Part shown: piece by piece, positions 28,050 through 48,462 of the stretch | How positions within the stretch are numbered: position 1 is the first letter of the stretch | Layout of the letters: each line of letters opens with the position of its first letter | Virus record (IMG/VR): IMGVR_UViG_2917403263_000001 | Direction: 5' to 3' (one strand) | DNA length: 50,015 bases | Source of the DNA: a virus | Taxonomy: Duplodnaviria > Heunggongvirae > Uroviricota > Caudoviricetes | Translations under genes and position numbers: made by a program | Notes under the pieces: model-generated | What the model saw: the letters and a program-made list of their open reading frames with translations, nothing else | Told to the model about the DNA's origin: nothing | Database searches by the model: none

Positions 28050-28206
28050 TAAAAAACAACATCCCATCGTAGGAATCCGCAAATGCCTTTTGTGTGACAT
28101 AGTCTGATATGAAAAGCGAAGAATTAATGTACGGAAATAAGGATTACCAGAAATTCAGATTAATTTTCCTGTTTAAACGAGAAAAATTAATTTATATACT
28201 TTTTGC

Positions 28207-28293
28207 ACTTCCCGAGCGGGAGGTGGAAAGGAAATTCGTTATGTTTCACGGACTTTGTCCAGCGACCTTAATCCGACGGTCGCGTTTTTTTTT
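28207..28293 (+). ncRNA. Candidate small RNA A (antisense to the late transcript)
   Basis: Promoter TTTAAA-N17-TATACT (28172-28200), then about 87 nt ending in GGACtttGTCC, the hairpin GCGACC-TTAATCCGAC-GGTCGC and T9. Confidence 0.45.
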
Positions 28294-28372
28294 GCGTCAT
28301 ATTCATCGTTGACTTACATGGCATTGCCACACGGACATTATCAGTGTCCGTGTATTTTTTTGAATTCAACAC

Positions 28373-28398
28373 AAAAAAAACCGCCTGGTGCGGCGGTT
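28373..28398 (-). terminator. Intrinsic terminator (copy A of the tR'-like hairpin)
   Basis: Minus strand reads CCGCC-gcacca-GGCGG followed by T8. Confidence 0.7.
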
Positions 28399-28772
28399 GA
28401 ACAATGCTGAAGATGAATCATTTTTATTGTAGTGAAATTGAGATGTTGTGGACTTCCCTGAATATCTGACTTTATGCCAGACATTGTGGTTACAGAAACA
28501 CAATGTAAACCACCCTCATACCGGGGAACATCTCTTTGGTGTTATTTACAACACCGGAATGATGCATTTCCGACTCTCCAAAGAAACACAATATTTCTAC
28601 CGAAAATACACCATTCCGCTATTGTAAAATAACAGCGCAAACCACTGACTAGCCAATTACAAATCGGTGTTCCTGTTTCCTGAGCAATGTTTACTCTTCA
28701 TATGAGTTCTTGTCGGGGAATAAAACCACTCACCCGGAAGACAGACGTATAATAACAAGGAATAAAATCACT

Positions 28773-28928
28773 TCAACTGTAATAATCTGAAAAATGATTC
28801 TTGCCACATGAAAACACCCACCAACCGTCCATTACCACAAATAAAAAAGCCTTCACCGCGTCGCGGTTTTCCATTTTCTTTACTTCTACAATAGCCTTAC
28901 GGGTTTTCTTTTTGAAAATCACAAACAT
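28773..28928 (-). CDS. Hypothetical 51-aa protein between the two modules
   Basis: ATG after AAAGGAAAAG; no recognisable motif. Confidence 0.3.
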   Translation of the reverse strand: MFVIFKKKTRKAIVEVKKMENRDAVKAFLFVVMDGWWVFSCGKNHFSDYYS

Positions 28929-29137
28929 CGTGACTTTTCCTTTTAGTGGGTGAACCTCTGCCCGGGGTGCCCAACCCACAGAGAAAGTCACACTGACCAT
29001 CCCGTAAGCTCACCCCTGAAAGGTTCTGTGGTCTTTGATCCGCGCCGGGCGTAGCGCAAAGAATGAAATAAGCCTTATCTGAAATTAAGGTTAATCTAAG
29101 GATTTAAACCATTCTAAATGCTTAGTAGTATAAACAT

Positions 29138-29214
29138 GCCTCTTGAAAGAGGCAGATACTAATCCTTCTTCATGGACCTTGTCCCGCGGCTTTAATCCGA
29201 CAGCCGCGTTTTTT
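29138..29214 (+). ncRNA. Candidate small RNA B (antisense to the late transcript)
   Basis: Promoter TTTAAA-N17-TAGTAT (29103-29131), then the hairpin GCCTCTTgaaaGAGGC, an AU-rich linker, GGACcttGTCC, the hairpin GCGGCT-TTAATCCGAC-AGCCGC and T6. Confidence 0.45.
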
Positions 29215-29364
29215 GCCTGTATATTACCATATGATGCAAATATAAAAGGCTCACCGAAGCGAACCTGATTCAAGCGTACTTGCTGCTACAACAGGGTTAT
29301 AATACCCCAACCACATAACGCCATGTGTTCTTTTCTAATGAGTTGGTGATAATTTTATACAAGC

Positions 29365-29390
29365 AAAAAAAACCGCCTGTTAAGGCGGTG
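29365..29390 (-). terminator. Intrinsic terminator (tR'-like, copy B)
   Basis: Minus strand reads CCGCC-ttaaca-GGCGG followed by T8. Confidence 0.75.
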
Positions 29391-29593
29391 GTCAAATCAT
29401 GAAGAGTATTATTATAATATAGGTGAGGTGTCGGGTGCCTCCCGAAATATCTGACATTCCATCAGATACTGTAGTTTCCCCGCTAAACAACCACTAAAAC
29501 CACCCCCGCACATGGGGTTCACCTCATTTTGTGATGTTAACAACATCGGGATAGTGCATAATCAGCCCCAGCTAGGAAATATCAAAAATCCCA

Positions 29594-29622
29594 CTAATAA
29601 TGCACTATTCCGATAGTGTCAA
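29594..29622 (-). promoter_or_regulatory. Sigma70-like promoter TTGACA-N17-TATTAG (candidate late promoter pR')
   Basis: Read on the minus strand. It lies about 220 nt upstream of the 29365-29390 terminator, the same geometry as lambda pR'-6S-tR'. The spacer (ctatcggaatagtgcat) is conserved in copy A. Confidence 0.45.
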
Positions 29623-29749
29623 AAAAACACAGCACTGAAACTATAACTGGTCTCCGTTATAATTCGGGGGAGCGATAAAGGAGTATACGAGACCTTTCCC
29701 CGCGAGAAAAAACGCCAGTGCTGAAAAACCTGTGCCTCATTTGTTTTGC

Positions 29750-34159: not shown

Positions 34160-34315
34160 TTACTCCTCAGGTTCGTAAGCTGTGAAGACAGCGACCTCCG
34201 TCTGGCCGGTTCGGATTCGTACCTCGCAGAGGTCTTTCCTCGTTACCAGTGCCGTCACTATGACGGTTAAACAGATGACGATCAGGGCGATTAACATCGC
34301 CTTTTGCTGCTTCAT
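34160..34315 (-). CDS. hokD: Hok/Gef-family type I toxin (HokD/RelF-like)
   Basis: 51 aa; MKQQKAMLIALIVICLTVIVTALVTRKDLCEVRIRTGQTEVAVFTAYEPEE matches my recollection of HokD; a structured hok-type leader lies upstream. Confidence 0.85.
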   Translation of the reverse strand: MKQQKAMLIALIVICLTVIVTALVTRKDLCEVRIRTGQTEVAVFTAYEPEE

Positions 34316-34582
34316 AGCCTGCTTCTCCTTGACCTTTCGGTCCGTAAGAGGCAATCTATATGTGACGAGCATATAGGGGCCTCACTTCGATTTATAGTCG
34401 GGTGGGGCTTTTCTCTATCTGCCTTTGGTAGCATGCCCGAGGCAGATAGCCTCAAGCACCCGCAGCAATTCTACTTAACTATCTTTTTCCCGCAAATCGT
34501 TTTTATCCCCAGCGGCAAATCGAATACACCATCAGCGCCACCGCCATTGCAATTCCTACCGTTGTGAATGCTTCAGGCCAAC

Positions 34583-48086: not shown

Positions 48087-48281
48087 ATGCGGTATGAAAA
48101 AGTCAAACCATGCCCTTTTTGTGGTTGTCCATCAGTAACGGTGAAAGCCATTTCAGGATATTACCGCGCGAAGTGTAACGGATGCGAATCCCGAACCGGC
48201 TATGGTGGAAGTGAAAAAGAAGCACTCGAACGATGGAATAAACGAACCACTGGAAATAATAATGGAGGTGTTCATGTATAA
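48087..48281 (+). CDS. ralR: RalR / Lar restriction-alleviation protein (type I toxin DNase)
   Basis: MRYEKVKPCPFCGCPSVTVKAISGYYRAKCNGCESRTGYGGSEKEALERWNKRT... matches my recollection of Rac RalR. Confidence 0.8.
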   Translation: MRYEKVKPCPFCGCPSVTVKAISGYYRAKCNGCESRTGYGGSEKEALERWNKRTTGNNNGGVHV

Positions 48282-48462
48282 AATTACCGCCACTATTGAA
48301 AAGGAAGGTGGCACTCCTACTAACTGGACAAGGTACTCAAAAACAAAATTAACCAAATCAGAATGCGAAAAAATGCTCTCAGGTAAAAAAGAAGCAGGCG
48401 TTTCCAGAGAGCAGAAAGTAAAACTGATAAATTTTAATTGCGAGAAAATTCAGTCCTCGTGA
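48274..48462 (+). CDS. ydaC: YdaC (DUF1187)
   Basis: 62 aa from MYKITATIEKEGGTPTNW...; ATG 5 nt after GGAGG; Rac synteny. Confidence 0.6.
   Translation: MYKITATIEKEGGTPTNWTRYSKTKLTKSECEKMLSGKKEAGVSREQKVKLINFNCEKIQSS

Follow-up and report, generated by a model that had tools for sequence, protein, structure and literature searches.

Two paralogous copies of a candidate small RNA family opposite the late operon of a Rac-like Escherichia prophage

The window, by which we mean the whole 50,015-nt stretch of DNA that was analysed (IMG/VR record IMGVR_UViG_2917403263_000001), is by its sequence a lambdoid, Rac-like Escherichia prophage. The late genes lie on the minus strand, where a Q-like antiterminator gene (30898-30233) is followed directly by a tR'-like terminator found by a terminator scan (30163-30139), then by the transfer RNA (tRNA) genes tRNA-Thr and tRNA-Gly identified with ARAGORN (29903-29750), by about 1.7 kb without credible genes, and finally by the lysis genes, two holins and an endolysin, which run from about 28009 leftwards. 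Between the tRNAs and the holins, on the opposite (plus) strand, lie two copies (A and B) of a short unit made up of a putative promoter, a predicted small RNA (sRNA) and an intrinsic terminator. A sequence-only reading had proposed that these are paralogous sRNA genes on the plus strand, sharing a 3' end but not their 5' bodies, and lying antisense to the late operon and opposite to all flanking genes. The Q-like antiterminator, both tRNAs, the holins and the endolysin are indeed all on the minus strand, and the proposal of paralogous antisense sRNA genes is supported by the comparisons described below. We think it reasonably probable that the two copies represent a new family of prophage-encoded sRNAs, candidates for the Hfq type, in lambdoid (Rac-like) Escherichia prophages.

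Copy B is predicted to give an sRNA of about 77 nt (29138-29214), as judged by folding, covariation and a covariance model. Its promoter (29081-29131) comprises an upstream segment (GAAATTAAGGTTAAT, 29081-29095), a -35 element TTTAAA (29103-29108), a 17-nt spacer and a -10 element TAGTAT (29126-29131). The predicted transcript begins with the 5' hairpin GCCTCTTGAAAGAGGC (29138-29153) and continues through a U-rich linker (AGAUACUAAUCCUUCUUCAU, 29154-29173), which includes the U-rich stretch UCCUUCUUCAU, into a small hairpin (29174-29184; GGACCTTGTCC in DNA, GGACCUUGUCC in RNA), a terminator stem-loop with a 7-bp stem and the loop UUAAUCCGAC (29185-29208), and a U6 tract (29209-29214). Copy A has the same layout. 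Its promoter (28150-28200; 9/12 in the promoter scan) consists of an AT-rich upstream segment (GAAATTCAGATTAAT, 28150-28164), TTTAAA at 28172-28177, a 17-nt spacer and TATACT at 28195-28200, and the predicted sRNA of about 87-89 nt (28206-28293; fold and covariance model) contains an 8-bp 5' hairpin (28206-28225), a single-stranded linker with the U-rich stretch UUAUGUUUCAC (28226-28249), a small hairpin of the form GGACnUUGUCC (28250-28260; GGACTTTGTCC in DNA, GGACUUUGUCC in RNA), a 6-bp terminator stem GCGACC/GGTCGC (28262-28283) enclosing a 10-nt loop (28268-28277; TTAATCCGAC in DNA, UUAAUCCGAC in RNA) and a U9 tract (28285-28293). All of these elements are on the plus strand, as is the sRNA stretch AUACUUAUUCUUCUUCAUGGACUUUGUCC. 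The promoter elements, the paired 3' hairpins followed by U6 to U9 and, in copy B, the 5' hairpin followed by an AU-rich linker are thus where the sequence-only reading had placed them, both in the sequence and in the predicted folds.

Folding of the single sequences gave exactly three hairpins in each copy, with -25.2 kcal/mol for the 77 nt of copy B (z -3.85) and -29.4 kcal/mol for 89 nt of copy A (z -2.4). Both copies end on the plus strand in a GC-rich stem-loop followed by a U tract, as intrinsic terminators do; the simple terminator scan missed both because it allows loops of at most 8 nt and the loop here has 10. A second terminator-like hairpin, ACACGGACATTATCAGTGTCCGTGT followed by T7, was found by that scan on the plus strand 36 nt beyond copy A (28329-28361), and the same element lies downstream of the sRNA in an E. 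coli locus (L001); it may back up the terminator of copy A or mark where a longer isoform ends. Upstream of the -35 element, the family consensus holds an inverted repeat, AAATTAA-GG-TTAATTT (29081-29096 and relatives), which may serve as an UP element or bind a dimeric regulator of the sRNA promoter.

Copies A and B are 85% identical in their 46-nt 3' ends and 81% identical in 31 nt lying upstream of the -35 element, with no alignment between the two copies across the -10 element, the spacer and the 5' bodies. The claim of a shared promoter therefore holds for the -35 element and the upstream segment and fails for the -10 element and spacer, which cannot be aligned. A covariance model built from B-type copies alone (R1) scored 96.5 bits on copy B and found copy A over the full length of the model (28207-28292; 56.8 bits, E 1.4e-10), showing that the two copies are homologous. 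Copy A also contains an open reading frame (ORF) of 23 codons preceded by GGAGG, which the sequence-only reading had pointed out; it exists, with its ATG at 28241 rather than 28242, and is not conserved in copy B, where just 7 codons are open and in another register. It is not a credible gene: the 5' hairpin encloses the GGAGG at a distance of 15 nt from the ATG, the stop codon (28310-28312) falls beyond the terminator U tract, the C-terminus and frame shift with T8 versus T9 in three related loci (L049, L062, L085), and the product has no PHROG match. We regard this ORF as an accident of the conserved RNA sequence.

Relatives of the unit allowed its conservation to be followed base by base. 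Among 122 instances with full flanks, the -35 element is TTTAAA in 121 and the -35/-10 spacing is 17 nt in 121, while the -10 element is TAGTAT in 61, TAATAT in 55 and TATACT in 5. The -10 region TTAGTAnTAT shows little or no variation in 42 distinct relatives, and the sequence of the spacer drifts. Across 42 distinct B-type sequences, the predicted partners can pair in 96.5% of cells, compared with 41-54% once the partners have been shifted by 1-3 columns. Double changes occur at five pairs (three in the 5' hairpin, two in the terminator) and the observed covariation score was reached by none of 500 shuffles, although many of the aligned sequences are closely related, so that these counts overstate the number of independent events. 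RNAalifold independently predicted the same three helices. Even so, distinct versions of the stem exist (GUCUCC/GGAGAC, GUCCCC/GGGGGC, GCCUCU/AGAGGC and GUCUCUCU/GGAGAGAG), and pair 29-43 of the 5' hairpin is U-A in 15 sequences, U.G in 24 and C-G in 2. Wobble pairs also discriminate between the strands: in the 5' hairpin, 27 such cells are valid on the plus strand only, against 4 on the minus strand only, and the T tract lies 3' of the stem on the plus strand only. The plus strand is favoured by the G.U pairs, the promoter and the placing of the T tract alike.

The unit is widespread in E. coli. A 28-nt pattern over the small hairpin and loop occurred in 116 IMG/VR contigs, a pattern that left out the loop (linker plus small hairpin) in 111 stretches, and an independent pattern drawn from the promoter alone in 59 stretches, all 59 of them inside loci that the 3' anchor had found. 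The loop is identical to TTAATCCGAC in 113 of 117 matches found independently of it, the remainder being three single-base variants and one unrelated locus. Of 5,426 complete E. coli genomes, BLAST showed 306 (about 5.6%) to carry the B-type unit, at 353 places that are all chromosomal; at none of these is an RNA annotated, and RefSeq gives either nothing or unrelated 'hypothetical proteins'. Among 185,579 species, each represented by one genome, the pattern was seen in Escherichia ruysiae only, and among deposited phages SerU-LTIIb (two copies) and vB_EcoS-683R6 alone carry the unit. Its carriers include enterotoxigenic E. coli (ETEC), enteroaggregative E. coli (EAEC) 042 (NC_017626.1, complement 1550293..1550373), strain W (match at NC_017664.1 1515658-1515804), and isolates from animals and commensals. 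This recurrence, taken with the conserved promoter geometry and the covariation of the stems, indicates that the sRNA unit is not a chance arrangement.

Three linker classes were seen on the one scaffold: nearly all of about 125 instances are of the B class, five including the window are of the A class, and a third class occurs once (L027). The 5' body of copy A is accordingly rare, being found besides this window only in the IMG/VR loci L049, L062, L085 and L109, and window positions 28120-28238, which cover it, have no match in the complete E. coli genomes, where matches start at the shared 3' end. In L049, L085 and L109 a B copy lies 924-1009 nt from the A copy, as in this window. A side case is SerU-LTIIb (KU052038; L123 1-4400), the LT-IIb enterotoxin phage, in which tRNAs, an sRNA unit and a holin fragment are followed by a second set with an intact holin; this similar duplication indicates that duplication of the module recurs independently in the late region.

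The genomic slot is constant. In 97 instances, the gene diverging from the sRNA promoter is a PHROG-198-type holin (42), an EssD-type holin (29) or TerB (23); the nearest diverging gene is thus a holin in 71 of the 97, and the sRNA gene lies 72-152 nt from the start of the holin or TerB. The two sRNA copies of the window belong to two larger duplicated modules, each of which also carries, on the late strand and convergent with the sRNA, an element resembling the PasD/STnc100 RNAs. The one facing copy B (29360-29551, minus strand; terminator stem 29389-29372) matches RF02076 with 42.9 bits (gathering score 47) and E 2.2e-7, close to the 41.4 bits that the validated PasD2 of enteropathogenic E. 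coli (EPEC) reaches on the same model. The one facing copy A (28372-28565, minus strand; terminator stem 28398-28379) is more degenerate, has no Rfam match of its own and was recognised by its similarity to the other; the two segments are 66% identical over 273 nt (E 7e-11). Between the modules lies the remnant of a moron, a gene of the TerB (tellurite-resistance-like) family on the minus strand (28773-29000). Only its N-terminal part is recognisable, about the first 50 codons, with PHROG 632 matching residues 25-53 only and the 5' portion 88% identical to an intact E. coli gene; the gene was apparently cut short when insertion or recombination introduced the second module. In the E. coli locus L001, the intact TerB gene is followed by a DUF3927 gene.

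How the sRNAs might work can be outlined from these features. Each copy would form its own short transcription unit opposite the late operon, driven by a sigma-70-type promoter (TTTAAA, 17 nt, TAnTAT), with a transcript of about 77-89 nt that would start at the foot of the 5' hairpin and run through a linker of about 20-25 nt and the small invariant hairpin to an intrinsic terminator with a near-invariant 10-nt loop. At least three unrelated linker versions would thereby be carried on a common 3' scaffold. In enterobacterial sRNAs, the Hfq-bound module reportedly (Otaka 2011; Ishikawa 2012) combines a U-rich stretch with one or two hairpins and a U tail at the 3' end. Both copies have a U-rich single-stranded stretch, hairpins in that number and a 3' poly(U), and by this analogy the U-rich linker, double hairpin and U tail look like the 3' scaffold of Hfq-dependent sRNAs. 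We infer that the sRNAs are transcribed, depend on Hfq and act in trans. They would be made in the lysogen as non-coding 'morons' and would base-pair with host or phage mRNAs, as reported for PasA and PasC, which occupy the same slot. The linker is the probable target-pairing region, as its interchangeable versions fit a seed region, and the 5'-terminal hairpin fits a role in protecting the 5' end.

Several observations, besides the close relatedness of many aligned sequences mentioned above, weigh against this account. The -35 element is weak (4/6), and the promoter of copy B falls below the threshold of the promoter scan. The U tract is weak (CUACUUUU) in 55 of the 122 instances (about 45%). 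A near-invariant terminator loop is unusual for Hfq sRNAs and is left unexplained by the simple model. Finally, neither the window nor 1.1 Mb of related loci yielded a convincing trans target. Elsewhere in the window, complementarity extends over 12 nt at most, the chance level, and the complement of the loop is absent from the 1.1 Mb except in the opposite strand of the sRNA gene itself. The linker pairs with the holin translation start at -9.2 kcal/mol, about the 5th percentile of random windows, which is unremarkable, and duplexes of the sRNAs with the neighbouring STnc100-like RNA did not go beyond shuffles (z -1.3 and -1.0).

The instances with a weak U tract may depend on a second 3' module downstream. 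In E. coli 042 (L121 2663-2724) and in L120 (2123-2184) a tandem second 3' module, consisting of GGACGTTGTCC, a stem and T7, lies about 35 nt downstream and gives a weak R1 match (16 bits); in E. coli 042 it replaces the downstream terminator-like hairpin. This weak match points to duplication within the gene and to a longer isoform of the RNA in the weak-U-tract variants.

The alternative that deserves most attention, although we consider it unlikely, is that the RNAs act mainly in cis. Being fully complementary to the Q-dependent late leader just ahead of the first lysis gene or of TerB, they would damp stray read-through into the holin in the lysogen or tune the timing of lysis, by way of the convergent promoter and an RNase III-cut duplex; a loop-loop contact might begin at the YUNR-like UUAA of the invariant loop. 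Cis-antisense RNAs have precedents in lambdoid phages (lambda OOP and paQ, and P22 sar), and the fixed distance of 72-152 nt to the holin or TerB start, whichever of three unrelated genes is present, would suit a local function. So would the presence of the unrelated PasA/PasC family in the same antisense slot, and PasA has given chimeras with its own neighbouring gene in ligation-and-sequencing experiments on RNA interactions (RIL-seq) (PMC8550237). However, four late-strand terminators already precede the holin (30163-30139, 29389-29372, 28398-28379 and 28048-28033), so that little sense RNA is expected in the lysogen, and in lytic growth the late transcript should far outnumber the sRNA. 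Antisense complementarity is moreover automatic, which leaves the invariant loop and the conserved linker unexplained, and the distance to the holin exceeds 700 nt in the TerB-type loci. A broader idea, which we offer as speculation and hold to be distinctly unlikely, is that the pre-lysis stretch of lambdoid prophages is a niche for convergent antisense sRNAs, into which PasA/PasC and the present family were recruited independently, each with a late-strand PasD/STnc100-type RNA; their common job would be that of a cis safety catch or timer on the holin, with the UUAAUCCGAC loop as a kissing-loop or protein-recognition site.

Two further explanations would do without a plus-strand regulator. 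A hitch-hiking junction, that is, an orphan promoter and terminator at a mosaic boundary of the late region, conserved through recent spread, would fit the position of the units at module boundaries, their duplication together with their flanks in the window, in L049, L085 and L109 and in SerU-LTIIb, and their modest divergence (mean column identity 85%). We judge it very unlikely, given that the stems undergo compensatory changes while the loop, small hairpin and linker stay fixed, that the promoter geometry is kept as the spacer sequence drifts, and that the unit remains intact beside three unrelated downstream genes. Least credible to us is a function of the minus strand, whether as leader structures of the late mRNA or through a 32-codon ORF (MKNNKYWPPSGDMFILLSFRSGLNPQINLNFR) that overlaps the 5' half of the sRNA and its promoter in relatives (e.g. 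L003 and L001; cf. window 29081-29174). The hairpins can form on both strands, the 32-codon frame, starting with ATG or GTG, is intact in 87 of 123 instances, and its pairwise ratio of nonsynonymous to synonymous polymorphism (pN/pS) is 0.37. Yet the frame is broken in the other 36 of 123 by indels that preserve the hairpins, and also in both window copies (MKKD* in B, 20 codons in A); variable sites are spread 15/11/15 over the codon positions, with no excess at the third; the ORF lacks a good Shine-Dalgarno sequence and a PHROG match, and none of about 15 billion predicted proteins contains the exact peptide. The balance of G.U pairs (27 to 4) and the T tract and promoter, which are sensible on the plus strand only, likewise speak against it.

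Among known systems, the closest to the proposed sRNAs are PasA and PasC of EPEC E2348/69, known as EcOnc51/52 in enterohaemorrhagic E. coli (EHEC). These are Northern-validated, Hfq-dependent sRNAs beside the holin and antisense to late genes (PMC8550237; bioRxiv 10.64898/2026.05.13.724894). PasA is flanked by a moron and the holin, in the orientation '> < >' (Pearl Mizrahi et al., PMC8550237); PasA and PasC are related to each other and stand beside the holin/lysozyme operon, with TerB among their conserved neighbours, and PasD is a relative of STnc100 (Zhu, Shabalina, Storz 2026, bioRxiv 10.64898/2026.05.13.724894). Like the window sRNAs, they are encoded by lambdoid prophages, measure about 80 nt, end at an intrinsic terminator, run antisense to the late operon beside holin and moron, and are linked to a late-strand RNA of the PasD/STnc100 type; the sRNAs of the window thus share both their position and their orientation. 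PasA and PasA-2, too, have a common 3' end and a diverging 5' part, as copies A and B do. The two groups differ in host range, the Pas sRNAs being found mostly in EPEC and EHEC and the present family in the carriers listed above, and in arrangement: where TerB is present, the window-family sRNA comes before the moron and PasA/PasC after it. When PasA and PasC, flanks included, were compared with the window by BLAST, chance 10-14-mers alone turned up, and R1 had no match in the PasA/PasC loci (L118, L119) at E up to 10. We therefore rejected identity with PasA/PasC, there being neither sequence nor structure homology. Identity with PasD2 was rejected as well (no match by BLAST or covariance model); STnc100 (RF02076), PasD1 and PasD2 are partner elements, of about 165-200 nt and on the other strand from the window sRNAs.

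HnrS (EcOnc10-12) resembles the window sRNAs in being short, intrinsically terminated, located in late regions of lambdoid prophages and often multicopy, and it is Hfq-associated. It has 66 nt, carries 15 nt perfectly complementary to the 3' end of mazF, and 99% of its carrier strains are EHEC or EPEC. Identity was rejected, as the longest common stretch is 4-5 nt and the mazF-complementary 15-mer is absent from the whole window. A svsR or C0293-like RNA was rejected by location, svsR lying at the 3' end of cI and the window sRNAs between tRNAs and holin, and Esr41 likewise, being located in the SpLE1 island and its Rfam model having no match in the window. A tRNA-like reading was dropped, as ARAGORN finds just the two real tRNAs. 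So was a type I toxin-antitoxin pair: the opposite-strand 32-codon ORF is broken in both window copies and has neither a hydrophobic stretch of transmembrane length nor a family match. Lambda OOP and paQ and P22 sar are like the window sRNAs in being short, opposed to the direction of a phage operon and ended by intrinsic terminators. Their cis targets are defined, and they overlap coding genes (cII, Q and ant) in early or immunity regions; the window sRNAs, in contrast, lie over a non-coding late leader and have a conserved single-stranded linker and loop that are dispensable for cis pairing. Neither at the gathering score nor at E up to 10 did Rfam 15 match 28206-28293 or 29138-29214 on either strand. 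Only unrelated papers came back when full texts were searched for the sequence motifs. Within these checks of Rfam, named prophage sRNAs and full-text motifs, the family appears undescribed and unannotated.

Prophage sRNAs (PasA-D, HnrS, StxS, DicF, Esr41) are emerging as a route by which phages rewire host regulation. The present family adds to them and is not a new kind of system. It offers an easily detected candidate, carried by the widely used strains EAEC 042 and W and by an LT-II toxin phage, and its covariance model and alignment are ready for use in annotation. Its design would be modular, one 3' scaffold bearing at least three alternative linkers. Unrelated RNAs fill the antisense slot before the holin in different phage lineages, a hint that the position as such matters.

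Some features of the surroundings may be recorded. A repeat family (D2) consists of similar minus-strand intrinsic terminators at 28048-28033, 29266-29247 and 30163-30139, the first of them immediately upstream of the holin ribosome-binding site; counting the three D2 and the two STnc100-like terminators, late transcription must cross five before it reaches the holin. A sigma-70-like site, TTGATA-16-GATTAT (29585-29558), ends 7 nt before the Rfam match of STnc100-like copy B. At the 5' ends of the STnc100-like elements lie imperfect inverted repeats (29530-29565 / 29594-29629, and 28542-28631) with 36-nt arms that are 75% complementary; they overlap the putative STnc100-like promoter and cause spurious Rfam matches to microRNA precursors. 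The neighbouring prophage DNA is 86-97% identical, in mosaic fashion, to E. coli prophages with hokD and DUF1133/DUF1367 genes. Further away on the minus strand, we found RalA, the antitoxin RNA of RalR, at 48280-48458 (213 bits) and a sok-type antitoxin RNA at 34313-34461 (110 bits), which adjoins a hokD-like region; the presence of both is consistent with a Rac-like prophage.

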